DNA of 64,000 nt, from positions 121,803 through 185,802 of the forward strand of contig CACDEB010000001.1 in NCBI GenBank assembly GCA_902551755.1. The letters are read 5' to 3'. The position numbers were made by a program, and so were the translations under genes. The notes under the pieces were generated by a model. That model was given only the letters and a program-made list of their open reading frames with translations. It was not told the origin of the DNA and did no database searches. Of the stretch, positions 1 through 5,668 are shown piece by piece; the stretch's first letter is position 1, and every line of letters begins with the position of its first letter. This stretch comes from an uncultured Pelagibacteraceae bacterium (GTDB lineage: Bacteria > Pseudomonadota > Alphaproteobacteria > Pelagibacterales > Pelagibacteraceae).

Positions 1-464
1 GATGATCCAAGAATAGACTGAAAACATGTATTTCCCTCTATGTTAGTAATTTTAAACTTGTTTCCATTTTCAGGTAAAAAGCCACCGTTAAAAGTCAAAT
101 TATTGTTTTTATCATAAGTAGTTGGTCCAACTACACCACAATTTAAATTATTTTGATGTACTTCATATAAACTGAATATATTTCTCTCGTTAATTATACA
201 ATCTGCATTTAGTATTAATAAATATTCAGTATCTACAAAGCTTGCAATTTTATTATGTCCTTTGCTATACCCTATATTTTTCTTTTCTAAAATATATTTA
301 TGAATTTTATATTTCTTTGTTAATTCATTCTTTAATTTATAATTATTTGCATTATCTAAGATAATAACTTTAAATTTTTTTAGATTATTTAAACACTTTG
401 AAATTGTCTCCAAAGTTTCTTCATATATAACAATTTGAATTGTAATTTTTTCAAAATGTTTCAT
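1..464 (-). CDS. Glycosyltransferase family 2 protein (partial, runs off the left edge of the window)
   Basis: Not in the ORF track; translated by hand from ATG at 464: MKHFEKITIQIVIYEE...VIILDNA...KNIGYSKGHN...EYLLILNADC, the typical GT2 N-terminal pattern. Confidence 0.8.
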   Translation of the reverse strand, partial: MKHFEKITIQIVIYEETLETISKCLNNLKKFKVIILDNANNYKLKNELTKKYKIHKYILEKKNIGYSKGHNKIASFVDTEYLLILNADCIINERNIFSLYEVHQNNLNCGVVGPTTYDKNNNLTFNGGFLPENGNKFKITNIEGNTCFQSILGS

Positions 465-495
465 AATTCAATATAAGTATTATATATTAGAAATT

Positions 496-1206
496 ATGTT
501 TGAATATATTAATATAAAACTTGCTAAAACTAAGGGCAGTAAAAAACTAAGAAAATTGATACGAAAATTAAAAAATTTTTTTGGTGAAAAAGACCCTGGT
601 GCTCTTGACTTTAAGTTTTCAACAAAACCATCAAGATTATTTATAGTTCAGTCATTTATAAATAAAAAAAAATTTAATTCTTATTTAGAAATAGGCACTT
701 TTGATAATGAATTATTTGATCATATTAAATGTAAGAATAAAGTAGGTGTTGACCCATTTTCAGGTGGCACACATCGTATGACAAGCGATGAGTTTTTTTT
801 ACAAAATAGAGACAAATTTGATTGTATTTTTATTGATGGATTGCATCATTACGACCAAGTTAAAAGAGATATTAATAATTCACTAAAATTTATTAATGAT
901 CAAGGAATAGTCCTTGTTCATGATTGCTTACCTGAGAATATTGAGGCTCAATCAGTCCCCAGAACGATCACAAATTGGAATGGAGATGTCTGGAAGGCAT
1001 TTGCAGAGATTAGGGCTAACCCCAATTTAGATAGTTATACTTGTCTTGCAGATCATGGTATTGGAGTAATTTTTAAAAGTAGTAATAAGAAACCCTTTAA
1101 TTTTAAAATAAAAAATTTTAAAAAATTAAAGTTTTTAGATTATTACAAGAATCATTATGAAATGATGAATATAATTGAATATGAAGATCTAATTAAAATT
1201 ATTTAG
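496..1206 (+). CDS. Class I SAM-dependent methyltransferase (Methyltransf_24-like)
   Basis: YLEIG motif I, VGVDP, FDCIFIDGLHHYDQV and VLVHDC motifs. Confidence 0.8.
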   Translation: MFEYINIKLAKTKGSKKLRKLIRKLKNFFGEKDPGALDFKFSTKPSRLFIVQSFINKKKFNSYLEIGTFDNELFDHIKCKNKVGVDPFSGGTHRMTSDEFFLQNRDKFDCIFIDGLHHYDQVKRDINNSLKFINDQGIVLVHDCLPENIEAQSVPRTITNWNGDVWKAFAEIRANPNLDSYTCLADHGIGVIFKSSNKKPFNFKIKNFKKLKFLDYYKNHYEMMNIIEYEDLIKII

Positions 1207-1223
1207 AAATATTAATTAAAAAA

Positions 1224-1305
1224 TGGCGGAGAGAGTGGGATTCGAACCCACGAAAGAGTTTCCCCTAAACACGCTTTCCAAGCGTGCGCCTTAAACCGCT
1301 CGGCC
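1224..1305 (-). pseudogene. 5'-truncated copy of tRNA-Ser(GGA), acting as the distal att direct repeat
   Basis: 82 bp identical to 2826..2907 except one mismatch (1298 G vs 2900 A). The 5' acceptor strand GGAGAGAT is replaced by unrelated sequence, so the acceptor stem cannot form. Confidence 0.92.
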
Positions 1306-1361
1306 TACTTATATTGATTATACTTACTTATTTTTTTTGAACTTTGAGATTTTAAAACTGG

Positions 1362-1381
1362 TGACGACCAACTGACGACCA
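1362..1381 (+). repeat. Tandem TGACGACCA x2 (11-bp period), left candidate integrase arm site
   Basis: TGACGACCA at 1362-1370 and 1373-1381. Confidence 0.8.
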
Positions 1382-1386
1382 CTAGA

Positions 1387-1725
1387 TTATGACAGTAAAA
1401 CTTTAAGTACTTCTAAAACAGTATAAATCCCCCCAAGGACAATTAATATTTGGGCAGCTATTCCCCATCCTGAATTCTGTTTTTTTCTTTGTTTTTCTTT
1501 AACGTAAATTGTAGCGCTTTTAAATCCACCGATTAATAAAAAAGCATTGGCACCAATTAGGAAAAGCCAATAGACTATAAAAAAAAATGCTGCGCCACTT
1601 GAAACGTTTCCAGTAACAAAAACAAAAGGAATTGATAACACAATAGGTATAAGTATACATCCGATCCAGTAGCTTTGAACTAACGGATACTTTCCTTCCC
1701 AATATTTTTTAAGTTCTTTTTCCAT
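1387..1725 (-). CDS. Hypothetical membrane protein (about 3 TM), element cargo
   Basis: 112-aa ORF with three hydrophobic stretches; fits in tandem with its neighbours. Confidence 0.75.
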   Translation of the reverse strand: MEKELKKYWEGKYPLVQSYWIGCILIPIVLSIPFVFVTGNVSSGAAFFFIVYWLFLIGANAFLLIGGFKSATIYVKEKQRKKQNSGWGIAAQILIVLGGIYTVLEVLKVLLS

Positions 1726-1736
1726 AATTAAATATA

Positions 1737-2153
1737 CTAATTTCCTAAAATTTTATCCAGAAATTTCTGGGGACCACTTTTTTTCTTAGGTTGAATTGGA
1801 GTGATTGTTCTGTAGACCTTAAAACTTAAATCAACATTCGCACACTTTTTTCCTGAAGGTAATTTTGCGGTAATAACCATACTTCTATCTTCATATGACC
1901 TTACTTGTTTATTAATTCTATAAATCCTATACGGCTCTTCAGTGCTTGTATTAGTTGATGCACAAGGTTTATCCCAAATATTAATCTTTTCAACTATTAT
2001 AGTTTTTGATGGATGTTTATTATATGCATTAATTGTAACAGTGTCATAAGTTCGATCAACTTTCCAGGAATAATCAAAGAAATCATAAACATTCTCAGCA
2101 TTTGCATGAGAAGATACAATGATAAATAATATGTAAATTAAAATTTTTTTCAC
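1737..2153 (-). CDS. Hypothetical exported protein, element cargo
   Basis: 138 aa; MKKILIYILFIIVSSHANA looks like a signal peptide with an AxA cleavage site; two Cys; basic amphipathic C-terminus. Confidence 0.75.
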   Translation of the reverse strand: MKKILIYILFIIVSSHANAENVYDFFDYSWKVDRTYDTVTINAYNKHPSKTIIVEKINIWDKPCASTNTSTEEPYRIYRINKQVRSYEDRSMVITAKLPSGKKCANVDLSFKVYRTITPIQPKKKSGPQKFLDKILGN

Positions 2154-2162
2154 AACTCACAT

Positions 2163-2756
2163 TTAATAGTTAATAGATTTTACCATTTTTCTTCCCATTG
2201 TTTGCATCGTATTACAATTTTGATTTGTATCGCATCCAATGGTCAACGTTGCTAATCCTGATTTAACTTGAAATTGATATTGTATTAAATAATTCTTAGC
2301 TCCATCATGAATTAAAAAAATTACTGGATTAAACTTTGGTGAAAACTCGCTTGTTTGTTTACACTCATACTGTTTAATATTTTTGTTAAAAAGTCTTGAA
2401 TACTCTTTTTGGTATATTTTACACATTTCCTTCAAACCTACTATAAAAATATCGTTTACATCTCCTTCTTGAATATTAATGTTAATTGCATTTTTTACTG
2501 GATCCAAATCACTAGGAAAAAAGTATTCAACATTCATATTTTTCTTAGAAACACCTGCCATAATATCGTTGAATGCATCCATATCAATATCTTTACCCTC
2601 ATAATCTTTCAAAAGCTCCTCTATATTCAAATTTTGAACTGCTGTAAGGCCATCTGGTACATCTATATAAAAACCAAATCTTGATCTAATTTCTTTTGAA
2701 AAAGAGCTAGTTATTAAGTTGCAAAATAGTAAAAGGATAATTAAAATTTTTTTCAT
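2163..2756 (-). CDS. Hypothetical exported protein, element cargo
   Basis: ORF track gives 2163..2771, but the likely start is ATG at 2756 (MKKILIILLLF..., signal-peptide-like); the upstream extension runs into the repeat pair. Confidence 0.75.
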   Translation of the reverse strand: MKKILIILLLFCNLITSSFSKEIRSRFGFYIDVPDGLTAVQNLNIEELLKDYEGKDIDMDAFNDIMAGVSKKNMNVEYFFPSDLDPVKNAININIQEGDVNDIFIVGLKEMCKIYQKEYSRLFNKNIKQYECKQTSEFSPKFNPVIFLIHDGAKNYLIQYQFQVKSGLATLTIGCDTNQNCNTMQTMGRKMVKSINY

Positions 2757-2761
2757 TGTAT

Positions 2762-2781
2762 TGACGCCCATATGACGACCA
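2762..2781 (+). repeat. Tandem TGACGCCCA / TGACGACCA (11-bp period), right candidate integrase arm site
   Basis: TGACGCCCA at 2762-2770 and TGACGACCA at 2773-2781; same orientation and spacing as the left pair. Confidence 0.8.
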
Positions 2782-2825
2782 AATTATCTTAACCTGATTT
2801 TGACAATTGTAAAAGAGTAAATAAA

Positions 2826-2915
2826 TGGCGGAGAGAGTGGGATTCGAACCCACGAAAGAGTTTCCCCTAAACACGCTTTCCAAGCGTGCGCCTTAAACCA
2901 CTCGGCCATCTCTCC
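2826..2915 (-). tRNA. tRNA-Ser(GGA)
   Basis: GGAGAGA/TCTCTCC acceptor stem, CACGC-TTGGAAA-GCGTG anticodon arm, long variable arm, GGTTCGAATCC T-arm, encoded CCA. Confidence 0.97.
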
Positions 2916-2919
2916 AAAG

Positions 2920-3780
2920 TTATTTAATTAATCTTTTTAAATTTTTTCTTTGCCTGTTTATAAACCTTTTAAAAATATTATATCTTTTATCTCTACGAGC
3001 ATGAATAGGAAAATTTTTCAAATGTTGCCATGTTCTCCTATTTTGCTTCTCTGCCCATTCACATTCTGCTGAGGAAATTGAAAAAATGTTTTTTTTTTTA
3101 CAAATCAAAGAAAATACACTTTGATCGTGTCGGTGTTCAATAAATTTTTCATGATTCATAGAAAAAGATTTACTATCATCTATTAAACTGTCTTTTTTTA
3201 ATACTCTTTCCCAATCATGAATTAAACTTAATGAAAAATTACTTTTCTTTAAAAAAATAATACCTGACATTATTTGTTCTGAATTAATTATTTTAGATCT
3301 TTCTTTTTGAATTAAATAGTCGAATAAATCCATTTTAGTATACTCACATTCTAAATATTTTTGAAATTTTATGTTTTTTAATAAAGTAAATTTTTTTGTA
3401 ACAGGTAATTTATATTGAAAAGTAAGAACTTTTTTTTGGTTACACAATATTATATACTCTTTCAACCTTTTTAAGCCACCTATATTTAAATGGCAGCCAA
3501 CATCTGAATATTGCACAATAGAATTTTTTGGGACCTTTTTCAAAAATTTTTTTATCACCTCAGCTTTCCAGCACCCATATCCGTAAAGTCTTTTACCTTT
3601 ATATTTAAGAAAGTTTTGAATTTGCTTCCTTTTAGATTTTGATAGATCATCTATTCCAAAAACTTGAATTTTTTTATAAATATTTATCTTTTTTGCTTGT
3701 TCTATAAATCTTTGTTTACTTCTTTTAAGATCAGGACTTGCAAATGAACAAAGATATATATTATTAATTTTTGTTTTCAT
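2920..3780 (-). CDS. Putative glycosyltransferase-like protein (HRHDQS motif)
   Basis: YSDVGC and EHRHDQS motifs; context among glycan genes. Start placed at ATG 3780 (MKTKINN); the 3912 start overlaps the upstream gene extensively. Confidence 0.6.
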   Translation of the reverse strand: MKTKINNIYLCSFASPDLKRSKQRFIEQAKKINIYKKIQVFGIDDLSKSKRKQIQNFLKYKGKRLYGYGCWKAEVIKKFLKKVPKNSIVQYSDVGCHLNIGGLKRLKEYIILCNQKKVLTFQYKLPVTKKFTLLKNIKFQKYLECEYTKMDLFDYLIQKERSKIINSEQIMSGIIFLKKSNFSLSLIHDWERVLKKDSLIDDSKSFSMNHEKFIEHRHDQSVFSLICKKKNIFSISSAECEWAEKQNRRTWQHLKNFPIHARRDKRYNIFKRFINRQRKNLKRLIK

Positions 3781-4558
3781 AAAAAATCCAGGGCCATTCG
3801 TTATAACTAGTATATTTTCTGAACCAAAATGGCATGTATCTTTCAGCAAGAAAAGCATATAATCTAGTTTGGTCATAACCTTTAAGATTTTTAAAACCAA
3901 AAACTTTTTCACATTTAAATAACCACTCGAACTGATCTTTAAAAAAATTGTTAAGAATTTTTTTCTTTGAAATAAACATTATGTGTGGATTGTATGTTGT
4001 ATTTTTTTCTACAAATTCTGTAAAATCAGCTTTGTCCTTCTCATTCATAACGCTTATTGCTTTTTCTAATACTCCATATCCATGGTGAAGATCGAACTGG
4101 ATTTTTATTGTTATACGACTATGATCGATAAGTAATATTGGCTCTTTAATAATATTTCTCCAGCCTCTTTTTAAGAGTTTTGATAATTTTGTTCCAAGAG
4201 GAATAGGTTCACAAAGCACTGCATTATACTTTTCCCACTCCTTTGGTACACACTTTAATATTATTTTTGTAATGTCATCAGTTTCTGTTGTGCTTCTCGA
4301 ATTCAACCAAAATCTTCTTTTTTGGCAAAATCCTATCCAATCATGATCATTGTAATGTTGTAATTGATTCTTCCAAAACCAGTAATGAAAAGTTAGTTCA
4401 GAATAATTTTCCTCTTTATGGAATATATTATCCATATTATCACATCTTAAATACTTATCTGAAAACTTTTTTTTACCTACTGCTGCTAATTTATAGTTAC
4501 TTTTCTCTAAAAAGGGTACGTCCTTATCAGTAACGCAATAAATATCTAAATTTGACAT
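3764..4558 (-). CDS. DUF4422-family putative glycosyltransferase
   Basis: DNIFHKEENYSELTFHYWFWKN, IGFCQKRRFW and AFLAER motifs typical of DUF4422 proteins. Confidence 0.75.
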   Translation of the reverse strand: MSNLDIYCVTDKDVPFLEKSNYKLAAVGKKKFSDKYLRCDNMDNIFHKEENYSELTFHYWFWKNQLQHYNDHDWIGFCQKRRFWLNSRSTTETDDITKIILKCVPKEWEKYNAVLCEPIPLGTKLSKLLKRGWRNIIKEPILLIDHSRITIKIQFDLHHGYGVLEKAISVMNEKDKADFTEFVEKNTTYNPHIMFISKKKILNNFFKDQFEWLFKCEKVFGFKNLKGYDQTRLYAFLAERYMPFWFRKYTSYNEWPWIFYENKN

Positions 4559-4591: not shown

Positions 4592-5668
4592 ATGGTTTTT
4601 TATAGAAAAAAATTACAATTAATCTATAAATTTTTTATTTCTCAATTATTTAAGGTTATCTATGGAAAAGTCATTTTTTCCAATAAAAACGATAAAGATG
4701 TTAAATTTATTGAGATAAGCAAAGATAATCAAAAGTACAAGTTTGCTGAAATAGACAATGGCAGAATATTTACAGATTATGTGGAGAACGTAGCAATAAT
4801 TAATAAAAATCAAATTTTAGATTATGTGTCCTATCAACAAGTTGAAGGTGAGTTAAAAGAGCCATTTTTAAATGTTGTAGTTAAAAAAGGGACTCCGAAA
4901 TTCAAAAAAAGATTCAAAGGAAAAGTGTTTTCGTTAATTCAGGGTGCTAGTGGAAATAATAATTACTTCCACTGGATGTTTGACGTTCTTCCAAAACTGA
5001 TAATATTAGAAAAAGTTTACAAACTGAATGAAATTGATTATTTTTACTCTCCACAAATAAAACCATGGCAACTATCTTCTCTTTCTATTTTTGATATTTC
5101 TGAAGAAAGATTAATAAATAGTAATCATTTTAGACACATTCATGCCGATAAAATACTAGCAGTTTCACACCCTTGGTATAATAAAGGCAGAATTCTGGAT
5201 GAAGCCAAAACATTACCAACTTGGATAATAAATGAAATAGGATTAAAATTTGAAAAGTATGGAAAAAAATTCGAATGTAACGATAAAATTTTTATTGATA
5301 GAAGAGAGTCACACTTTAATCATTGTCAAATTATAAATGATGAGGAAATAAAGACTCATTTAAAAAAAAAAGGTTTTACGATATACAGGGTTGGTGAACT
5401 AAATTTTTTTGAGCAAATATACCTTTTTCAAAATGCTAAGATAATTATTGGTGCTCATGGGGCAGCGTTTGCAAACTTAATTTTTTGTAAACCAAATACT
5501 AAGGTTTTGGATATAATTCCAGAAAATCATCCCAATTCAGTTGACGAGACAATTGCAAAGTTTAAAAATTTAGATTTTAAATTTGTAAAAACCAAAGAAT
5601 TATCAATTGAAAAAAAAACTAATGGGGATATATTTTTACCAATAAAAGTAATTGACAGTTTTTTGTGA
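4592..5668 (+). CDS. Glycosyltransferase family 61 (DUF563) protein
   Basis: NYFHWMFDVLP, FIDR and QIYLFQNAKIIIGAHGAAFANLIF motifs. Confidence 0.85.
   Translation: MVFYRKKLQLIYKFFISQLFKVIYGKVIFSNKNDKDVKFIEISKDNQKYKFAEIDNGRIFTDYVENVAIINKNQILDYVSYQQVEGELKEPFLNVVVKKGTPKFKKRFKGKVFSLIQGASGNNNYFHWMFDVLPKLIILEKVYKLNEIDYFYSPQIKPWQLSSLSIFDISEERLINSNHFRHIHADKILAVSHPWYNKGRILDEAKTLPTWIINEIGLKFEKYGKKFECNDKIFIDRRESHFNHCQIINDEEIKTHLKKKGFTIYRVGELNFFEQIYLFQNAKIIIGAHGAAFANLIFCKPNTKVLDIIPENHPNSVDETIAKFKNLDFKFVKTKELSIEKKTNGDIFLPIKVIDSFL

Follow-up and report, generated by a model that had tools for sequence, protein, structure and literature searches.

Tandem TGACGMCCA pairs as candidate arm-type integrase-binding sites in an integrase-less SAR11 cassette at tRNA-Ser(GGA)

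Arm-type sites of lambda-type (heterobivalent) integrases have been described for lambda (P1, P2, P'1-3), Tn916, and CTnDOT (IntDOT arm-type sites: PMC2817482). CIMEs (cis-mobilizable elements) and tandem accretion at att sites are known from ICESt1 and ICESt3 of Streptococcus thermophilus (reviewed in PMC5704250), and ICEberg 2.0 treats CIMEs as a class (PMC6323972). Prochlorococcus is known for tycheposons and for island remnants flanked by tRNAs (bioRxiv 10.1101/2020.12.28.424599), and Methylophilaceae for additive genomic islands in which tRNA-end repeats recur (PMC10872708).

Here we analyse a window of 64 kb of SAR11 DNA (the whole stretch under study), in which a short cassette at tRNA-Ser(GGA) carries two tandem pairs of TGACGMCCA. 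The cassette is a CIME-like, tycheposon-like remnant. From their sequence and setting, the two pairs are most likely arm-type integrase-binding sites in a cassette that lacks an integrase of its own. No earlier description of TGACGMCCA as an arm site could be found; searching the text of the literature for the 9-mers returned primer sequences only.

The cassette and its two pairs

The insertion and its geometry are established by the close relative G347, in which the site is empty. Window positions 1-1305 align with G347 at 96.6% and continue into its complete tRNA-Ser gene; this delimits the cassette exactly as the stretch from one tRNA repeat to the other, a precise 1602-bp insertion at tRNA-Ser(GGA) with 82 bp of the tRNA 3' part copied at its boundary (Table 1). 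Within the boundaries set by this empty site, both pairs are internal to the insertion, at its inner ends and in direct orientation. As in CIMEs, the attL and attR repeats come from the target gene, and no recombinase or transfer gene is present among the three ORFs. The tRNA gene itself borders a variable region rich in glycosyltransferases.

Table 1. Positions in the window of the cassette features and the tRNA-Ser(GGA) sequences that bound them
Feature	Position	Strand	Remarks
Partial tRNA-Ser(GGA) copy	1224..1305	-	3' 82 nt, differing from the complete gene by one mismatch; attR-side att repeat, displaced; from alignment and BLAST
A/T-rich spacer, 56 bp	1306..1361		P-arm equivalent, from the tRNA-derived repeat to pair A; siblings have a homologous left spacer
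Pair A	1362..1381	+	TGACGACCA-ac-TGACGACCA; on the distal arm, candidate integrase-binding sites of arm type
Cargo ORF1	1387..1725	-	112 aa, predicted membrane protein; no Pfam match; also in sibling L165
Cargo ORF2	1737..2153	-	138 aa, N-terminal signal-like segment; no Pfam match; missing from siblings L165 and L166
Cargo ORF3	2163..2757	-	~198 aa, begins MKKILIILLLF (signal-like); no Pfam match; also in sibling L166; start placed at the sibling-conserved ATG 2757, not at ATG 2771 within pair B
Pair B	2762..2781	+	TGACGCCCA-ta-TGACGACCA; on the tRNA-proximal arm, candidate integrase-binding sites of arm type; 4 bp ahead of the cargo ATG
Spacer, 44 bp	2782..2825	-	P'-arm equivalent; promoter-like TTTACA-16-TAAGAT (2813 to 2786) pointing at the cargo
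Complete tRNA-Ser(GGA)	2826..2915	-	integration target, attL side; 3' 82 nt duplicated at 1224-1305

The four copies of TGACGMCCA noted in the sequence-only reading, in two direct tandem pairs with an 11-bp period, were confirmed; all are on the + strand, and the window holds no others. Its rough figure of about 0.1 chance copies per window agrees with a computed expectation of 0.09, and four or more copies were reached in none of 100 shuffles. The pairs stand 56 and 44 bp from the tRNA repeats; measured to the anticodons, the distances are about 83 and 98 bp, close to the 80 and 95 bp first given.

Sibling cassettes and conservation of the pairs

As the sequence-only reading had anticipated, the pairs are associated with tRNA 3' ends. 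The pair pattern matched five times in four of 401 family genomes, every time at tRNA-Ser(GGA); a reversed control pattern had no match in the same 401 genomes. Every SAR11 match sits 45 bp from the tRNA-Ser 3' end, and in a species-genome scan a tRNA lay within 100 bp at 28 of the 119 loci returned. The motif scan that had been proposed recovered sibling cassettes, a tandem array included; its pelagiphage part was unproductive, no pelagiphage among the phage records and IMG/VR contigs scanned carrying the pair.

About 16 sibling cassettes of this type (0.7-1.6 kb, 1-3 genes) were found in two SAR11 genera and in ocean metagenomes, with the same pairs and differing cargo, mostly secreted or membrane proteins (DUF2846; trypsin-like protease; DUF805; proteins without family match). 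One sibling (L172) is a tandem array, and another (L174) has three repeats. Window and siblings have the left-spacer blocks tattgatta, tatttttt, and attttaaaa in common; at the position equivalent to pair A the siblings read TGRCGMCCA-NN-YGRMGWCMW. In the place of the promoter-like hexamers of the window, siblings of the other genus have TTGCAC-16-TAAAAT, as read off the right-arm alignment.

The pairs could be fossil arm sites, left behind by a full element that inserted once, lost its integrase and replication genes, and spread as an immobile remnant by homologous recombination between SAR11 cells only. A cognate integrase is encoded in no cassette-bearing genome examined, the left pairs have partly degenerated in the other SAR11 genus, and the internal indels that window-type siblings show between identical ends could come from deletion or from homologous recombination. 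Against this stands the conservation of the right pair: its 20 bp are near-invariant over 16 right arms (three variable positions) and form the most conserved block of the arm, although between the two genera the adjoining spacers are too diverged to align, which argues for ongoing selection on the pair. At least ten unrelated cargo sets between the same arms, and a tandem array of siblings with a perfect internal left pair, are likewise hard to derive from one ancestral deletion, and the 82-bp repeats of the window differ by one base only. We regard a purely fossil origin as unlikely.

Integrases beside tandem pairs

Integrase-bearing elements of 9-11 kb occupy the same tRNA-Ser in other SAR11 genomes; parent-type elements among them encode a Prim-Pol/AAA_25 protein. 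In each of them a tandem 11-bp pair precedes the integrase ATG by 12-18 bp and stands 45-55 bp away from the tRNA; to the four integrase subfamilies at this tRNA correspond four different pairs (CTTGTCACA; TGGACACT; TGATCACA; CGGTCGCAC). At this equivalent position the repeat sequence co-varies with integrase lineage. In element L260 an identical pair is present at both inner ends. The 7.8-kb integrase element that this genome has in tRNA-Leu serves as an internal control, with its own tandem motif at both ends.

In other phyla the TGACGMCCA pair itself adjoins integrases: it is separated by 60-85 bp from a tRNA end and by 12-150 bp from a tyrosine integrase gene, on the 3' side of that gene. 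Integrase-bearing tRNA elements of many phyla have the layout full tRNA, 70 bp, pair, integrase, and at the far end pair, 130 bp, partial tRNA. In Eremiobacterota, full tRNA-Ala, ~70 bp, and pair were found at 18 loci, and pair, ~130 bp, and partial tRNA-Ala at another 16, giving the same two-arm layout. Three integrases from other phyla were scanned for domains (PF00589 in all three; Phage_int_SAM_3 in two; Arm-DNA-bind_4 in one, weakly), and a KDGRW-type N-terminus is common to eight aligned integrases. With the tRNA as reference, the SAR11 motif points the opposite way from that of Ca. Actinomarina and Eremiobacterota. The target gene in Ca. Actinomarina is tRNA-Val(TAC), the full gene being located by genome search; an Rfam search of the repeat copies, which are partial, gave no matches.

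The motif is tied strongly to tRNA att sites and, in other phyla, to integrase genes, which supports the candidate integrase arm site of the sequence-only reading; an absence of either association had been named there as contrary evidence. The further proposal, a barcode for the cognate integrase and for sibling cassettes, has comparative support: each SAR11 tRNA-Ser integrase subfamily has its own pair, and sibling cassettes were found. The cognate integrase for TGACGMCCA was not found in SAR11, and the 9-mer pair is not SAR11-specific.

This genome encodes no cognate integrase that has an arm-binding domain at its N-terminus; its recombinases are a 323-aa Xer-like protein and a 545-aa integrase only, with no IntI-like gene. 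The other cassette-bearing SAR11 and Actinomarina genomes likewise yielded no integrase with a suitable arm-binding domain, and an integrase-bearing element with TGACGMCCA arms was absent from the SAR11 genomes, IMG/VR viral contigs, and JGI metagenomes searched. The 545-aa integrase was rejected as cognate, its own tRNA-Leu(TAA) element using TTTCTAGTTT repeats. A 490-aa integrase on contig L168, 1.7 kb from a right pair, at first seemed cognate and was also rejected; its relatives adjoin tRNA-Thr(TGT) without a TGACGNCCA repeat, and a tandem GGCTACAG pair lies upstream of its gene. On L168 there appears to be a tRNA-Ser cassette, either captured or decayed, in which just 28 nt of the tRNA are left. 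A pelagiphage origin was rejected as well: when the locus was compared by BLAST with 50,697 phage records, only generic tRNA-Ser matches came up, and IMG/VR scans with the pair, the degenerate left pair, and the tRNA-Ser anticodon-arm segment yielded nothing but unrelated contigs, either high in GC or not from SAR11. The att sites published for pelagiphages lie in tRNA-Cys, tRNA-Leu, and tRNA-Arg, not in tRNA-Ser (10.1101/410191).

Pair B lies between promoter-like hexamers and the cargo ATG, 4 bp from the latter, in an arrangement conserved in siblings, so that a function in expression could account for some of its conservation. The pairs would then be operators or 5'-UTR elements for the cargo, bound by a regulator of host or element and not by an integrase. 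Pair A fits this poorly, since it follows the last cargo stop codon and faces only the tRNA fragment, and in other phyla the motif is found downstream of integrase genes beside tRNAs, not in promoters. The genome-wide promoter motif that the sequence-only reading had allowed for, as expected of a host transcription-factor operator, was not observed: the two tandem pairs of the window are the only ones in the 1.07-Mb genome, and the four further single copies, against ~3.3 predicted from composition, are at chance level. No terminator was predicted at the pairs, and - strand RNA folding of the arm regions showed no excess over shuffled sequence (z-scores -0.4 to +1.7). A regulatory role in place of integrase binding appears very improbable.

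Binding of another element-encoded protein to the pairs is harder still to credit: excisionases (recombination directionality factors) do typically bind direct repeats spaced about one helical turn apart, as lambda Xis does, and a primase/helicase that could use iterons is encoded by the parent-type SAR11 elements (Prim-Pol/AAA_25), but Xis-type sites are normally on one arm and the pairs are on both, two copies at each of two distant sites in cassettes without an adjacent rep gene or AT-rich unwinding block do not resemble the iterons of a replication origin, and the repeats vary with integrase subfamily while the AAA_25 gene stays a constant neighbour.

Docking, at the two pairs, of an integrase made elsewhere thus appears the most likely function. 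The pairs would be the P and P' arm sites for the N-terminal DNA-binding domain of a tyrosine integrase, and the 1602-bp cassette would have been inserted by site-specific recombination into the tRNA-Ser(GGA) 3' part. On circularisation, pair B, 44 bp, the 82-nt tRNA-like core segment, 56 bp, and pair A would form a complete attP of ~220 bp. The repeats are direct, distinct from the core, and less than 150 bp from the 82-bp core segment, which they flank on both sides once the cassette is circular. As the repeats of a pair are one helical turn apart, two integrase N-domains would bind the same face of the DNA, from which they could bridge to the core; the protein binding is inferred. The cassette appears to be a miniature derivative of the integrase-plus-primase/helicase elements found at the same tRNA in other SAR11 genomes, its cargo genes occupying the usual place of the integrase gene after the proximal pair and promoter. 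It would then be mobilised by an integrase supplied in trans, and its cargo would probably be expressed from the former integrase promoter.

A wider picture can be offered as speculation. SAR11 might possess, at tRNA-Ser(GGA), an integron-like, tRNA-anchored cassette system built of lambda-type att sites, and Ca. Actinomarina might independently have one at tRNA-Val(TAC); cassettes of 0.7-4 kb (cargo, two docking arms, and a tRNA mimic) might be excised, exchanged, and stacked by trans-acting integrases from rare integrase/primase elements of 9-11 kb. The arm repeat might then be the address label for the integrase, and the system a main route by which cell-surface and defence genes are renewed in streamlined, nearly integrase-free genomes.

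Comparison with known systems

SAR11 bacteria are among the most abundant in the ocean and are usually described as poor in mobile elements. Their tRNA-Ser(GGA) gene is an integration hot spot, with 9-11-kb integrase elements and many tiny integrase-less cassettes for secreted and membrane proteins. The repeat is a simple sequence key for finding such cassettes, one that worked here, and it gives a testable hypothesis on which integrase moves which cassette. Mobilisation in trans, if true, would explain the continued exchange of surface genes in genomes without integrases. One 9-mer pair beside integrases in many phyla suggests a widely conserved arm-binding specificity and could help in att-site prediction.

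With the arm sites of lambda, Tn916, and CTnDOT the pairs have in common that they are short direct repeats distinct from the core and about one helical turn apart; that they are on both arms, inside the element, and within ~50-130 bp of the core; and that related elements place the pair beside an integrase with an N-terminal arm-binding domain. Unlike lambda-type elements, the SAR11 cassette is without any integrase and has only two candidate sites per arm.

CIMEs similarly have attL and attR flanks, no integrase or transfer genes, tandem arrays, and autonomous integrase elements on the same target gene. The SAR11 cassettes are much smaller (0.7-1.6 kb, 1-3 genes) and belong to a streamlined, free-living ocean host; no conjugative partner is known, and the autonomous elements found at tRNA-Ser have different arm repeats.

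Integron gene cassettes (attC, IntI) are comparable in being small, mostly of one gene, variable in cargo, stacked at one site, and without a recombinase of their own. The SAR11 cassettes differ from them in a tRNA gene target and double-stranded direct repeats, with no attC-like single-strand fold and no IntI.

The tycheposons and the islands of Methylophilaceae are likewise found in streamlined marine bacteria, with integration at tRNA genes, partial tRNA copies, units stacked between partial tRNAs, and parent-type elements with a tyrosine recombinase and primase/helicase. The tycheposon preprint (10.1101/2020.12.28.424599) makes no mention of arm sites (text search for 'arm'), and SAR11 and tRNA-Ser(GGA) are not among its cases. 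Unlike the units described in both of these systems, those of SAR11 consist of cargo only, yet have kept complete arms.

The tandem pairs and the insertion that carries them

The four TGACGMCCA 9-mers lie exactly where the sequence-only reading had placed them and are the only matches in the 64-kb window (0.09 expected by chance from dinucleotide-preserving shuffles; none of 100 shuffles gave four). The genome (1.07 Mb, 12 contigs, 29.5% GC) contains four additional single copies against about 3.3 predicted by a composition estimate, which puts single copies at the level expected by chance. The tandem arrangement is confined to this locus, and the genome-wide occurrence in ordinary promoters that would have pointed to a transcription-factor site is absent.

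Coordinates of the cassette features and of related loci (window positions unless a contig or locus is named)
Feature	Position	Strand	Basis or detail
tRNA-Ser(GGA), complete	2826-2915	-	ARAGORN
Partial tRNA-Ser copy, 3' part	1224-1305		82 bp, one mismatch; alignment to complete gene
Pair A, TGACGACCA-ac-TGACGACCA	1362-1381	+	
Pair B, TGACGCCCA-ta-TGACGACCA	2762-2781	+	
Three small cargo ORFs	between tRNA copies	-	112, 138 and ~198 aa
tRNA-Leu(TAA) element, window genome	C2 ~104,500-112,320 (L205 4501-12317)		7.8 kb
Xer-like gene, window genome	C2:15559-16530 (L006 1456-2427)		
Two tRNA-Ser cassettes in tandem array	L172 (CETH01028829.1) 2152-3907		
Three TGACGCCCA repeats in succession	L174 1714-1746		11-bp period
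Six successive 11-bp units, TGACGACCATT-type	L075 (Mycobacterium sp. MAG) ~4830-4895		at ORF end
Actinomarina tRNA-Val(TAC) arrays	L268 (SAG AG-917-O09, G401:C2:93500-102500), L269, L086, L157		

Pair A lies 56 bp inward of the partial tRNA copy; the first cargo start codon is 4 bp downstream of pair B, and the complete tRNA has its 3' end 44 bp away on the other side. A hypothetical circle closed across the repeat would carry pair B, 44 bp, an 82-nt tRNA-like segment, 56 bp and pair A, the same layout as a lambda-type attP, in which arm sites flank the core on either side. In G347, a close relative with an empty site, the counterpart of window 1-1305 (96.6% identity) continues directly into a complete tRNA-Ser, beyond which comes the right flank of the window. 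The cassette thus corresponds precisely to the 1602 bp delimited by the tRNA repeats. The 20 other SAR11 genomes sampled have a single tRNA-Ser each and no partial copy within 7 kb. The N-termini of all three cargo ORFs are membrane or signal-peptide-like, and Pfam gave no match for any of them. The sole mismatch between the tRNA repeats, G at 1298 in the partial copy versus A at 2900 in the complete gene, fits an element-borne tRNA mimic with crossover 3' of the D-loop; the G is also present in the sibling cassette L165.

Sibling cassettes and related pairs in other lineages

The motif had been proposed as a marker of sibling cassettes, and scanning recovered these at tRNA-Ser(GGA) in family genomes and in metagenomes. 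Among 401 family genomes, TGACGNCCANNTGACGNCCA was matched only in the window genome and in three genomes of one other genus (reversed control pattern, no matches). In those three, the pair lies 45 bp from the tRNA-Ser(GGA) 3' end, immediately upstream of a ATGAAAAAA start, with a 72-bp partial tRNA copy at 0.7-1.35 kb and different cargo in each. One scan of JGI metagenomes for TGACGCCCATATGACGMCCA returned 20 contigs, of which 13 are SAR11-like and show this arrangement; the contigs include the L172 tandem array, the L174 triple repeat and two window-type siblings, L165 and L166. The internal left pair of the tandem array in L172 is a perfect TGACGCCCATATGACGACCA; L165 and L166 keep the window's arms with different subsets of its ORFs. 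Sibling cargo consists mostly of secreted or membrane proteins (DUF2846, trypsin-like protease, DUF805, several with no family match). Across 16 aligned right arms, conservation between cargo start and tRNA is highest in the 20-bp pair, which is identical in both SAR11 genera, whose spacers are unalignable; left pairs are more variable, with the common frame TGRCGMCCA-NN-YGRMGWCMW.

Cassettes armed with TGACGCCCA-AA-TGACGCCCA stand in arrays behind tRNA-Val(TAC) in Ca. Actinomarina, a streamlined marine lineage, together with units bearing ACACCCACA-type or TGACACACA-type tandem pairs. These arrays carry, among other cargo, an EcoRI-type methylase accompanied by a GmrSD/HNH protein, and a secreted protease of 1114 aa; the cassettes lack an integrase.

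The association of the motif with tRNA genes and integrases, also expected from the sequence-only reading, extends across phyla. A scan of 185,579 species genomes for TGACGMCCANNTGACGMCCA gave at least 119 loci; among the matches listed, 28 have the pair no more than 100 bp from an intact tRNA gene (well under one expected by chance). In Eremiobacterota/Vulcanimicrobiota, at least 18 loci show a full tRNA-Ala, ~70 bp and then the pair. Wherever an intact flank is present, an integrase gene comes next, with its 3' end towards the pair. At least 16 further loci show the pair, ~130 bp and then a partial tRNA-Ala (positions 32-76). These elements share the two-arm architecture of the window, but with the enzyme present. 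Independent cases occur at tRNA-Met, -Gln, -Lys, -Thr and -Glu (Chloroflexota, Myxococcales, Planctomycetota, Acidobacteriota, Clostridia, one viral contig). Three pair-adjacent proteins gave PF00589 (3/3), Phage_int_SAM_3 (2/3) and a weak Arm-DNA-bind_4 (1/3), and eight aligned integrases have a KDGRW-type N-terminus in common. Relative to the tRNA, the motif is inverted in SAR11 as compared with Actinomarina and Eremiobacterota.

Other arrays were seen alongside. In dozens of species (L036-L154; Eremiobacterota, Vulcanimicrobiota and Ca. Cybelea MAGs), TGACGACCATTTGACGACCA is found at both ends of tRNA-Ala-integrated elements with a 417-aa integrase, several integrases being fragmentary. Four low-GC JGI contigs (L156, L158, L164, L171) carry an 11-bp periodic array, TGACGCCCATA two to three times, TTGACTGCCATA twice and then TTTGACGAGGG, beside low-complexity ORFs; in L164 a tyrosine-recombinase-like ORF has its 3' end ~80 bp away. 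The mycobacterial array, with no integrase nearby in BLAST queries, may be a tandem repeat of unrelated origin.

Integrase-bearing elements and the question of a cognate enzyme

A profile built on the integrases associated with the motif detected relatives in 15 of 64 near-complete SAR11 genomes. The SAR11 genome G095 has a 10.9-kb element between perfect 67-bp tRNA-Ser(GGA) repeats, encoding a 333-aa integrase, a Prim-Pol/AAA_25 protein and a restriction-type helicase. The integrase starts ~90 bp past the tRNA, behind tandem CGACC-type repeats; the far end carries three GAGTCCA repeats, the second half-site word of many left pairs. Marine and freshwater metagenomes commonly contain homologues of this integrase. 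All contexts read have a tandem 11-bp pair 45-55 bp past the tRNA-Ser 3' end, with the integrase ATG 12-18 bp further on. The pair is CTTGTCACA, TGGACACT, TGATCACA or CGGTCGCAC according to integrase subfamily, which at SAR11 tRNA-Ser agrees with the proposal that the motif would serve as a barcode for its integrase. Both ends of one element are on a single contig (L260), with the identical pair TCGGTCGCACTGCGGTCGCAC at both inner ends. As an internal control, the tRNA-Leu(TAA) element of the window genome, bounded by a 41-bp repeat of the tRNA 5' half and encoding a 545-aa tyrosine integrase and a 759-aa ORF, has a different tandem motif, TTTCTAGTTT, near both inner ends.

No integrase fit for TGACGMCCA arms was found in the window genome (92% complete), in three other SAR11 or in two Actinomarina cassette-bearing genomes, these last five having only Xer-like recombinases (~295-325 aa); nor was a TGACGMCCA-armed integrase-bearing element found among the SAR11 genomes, phages and viral contigs searched. 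The cassettes may thus be mobilised in trans by a rare, unsampled helper, or the pairs may sit on recent fossils now spread by homologous recombination.

The window genome, G248, G031 and G347 each have one conserved Xer-like tyrosine recombinase (~323 aa), adjoining a glycosyltransferase-like gene in the window genome; a XerC/XerD pair was not detected, and the Actinomarina genomes have two Xer-like genes. A 490-aa integrase on contig L168 (Ga0208019_1009079) was rejected as cognate: it belongs to tRNA-Thr elements, its relatives lack the TGACGNCCA repeat, and on L168 itself a GGCTACAG pair precedes the integrase gene. That contig combines the tRNA-Thr(TGT)-family integrase, half a tRNA-Thr and a tRNA-Ser-type cassette (trypsin-like protease, right pair, just 28 nt of the tRNA-Ser 3' end) that may have been captured by another element. 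An integrase of the same family and a family-A DNA polymerase are encoded on L203 (ERZ26051151 ctg162320_2x_c), a 19-kb record with the same gene order twice (~9.65-kb unit), possibly a small circular episome.

Reading of the pairs and comparison with known systems

The pairs are best read as candidate arm-type integrase-binding sites, as first suggested, a reading that the comparative evidence supports. A host operator is unlikely, given that the rest of the genome lacks the tandem motif and that the cargo lies upstream of pair A. Excisionase sites or iterons are a poor match, since both arms carry the pairs, each site has just two copies, the repeats change along with the integrase, and a rep gene is absent. 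Nor is there support for a terminator or structured RNA.

With the pairs taken as putative arm sites, the cassette can be understood as a miniature member, lacking an integrase, of a tRNA-Ser(GGA)-targeting element family. The cargo sits where an integrase gene would otherwise be, after a promoter-like site (TTTACA-16-TAAGAT in the window; TTGCAC-16-TAAAAT in the other SAR11 genus) and the proximal pair, which suggests that it would be expressed from the former integrase promoter; bound integrase could then repress it.

An integron cassette was rejected because an attC-like fold and IntI are both absent. Among the closest known kinds are lambda-type arm sites for the pairs and, for the cassette, CIMEs with tandem accretion (PMC5704250, PMC6323972) and tycheposon islands that contain partial tRNAs (10.1101/2020.12.28.424599); similarly close are additive islands in which tRNA-end repeats recur (PMC10872708).
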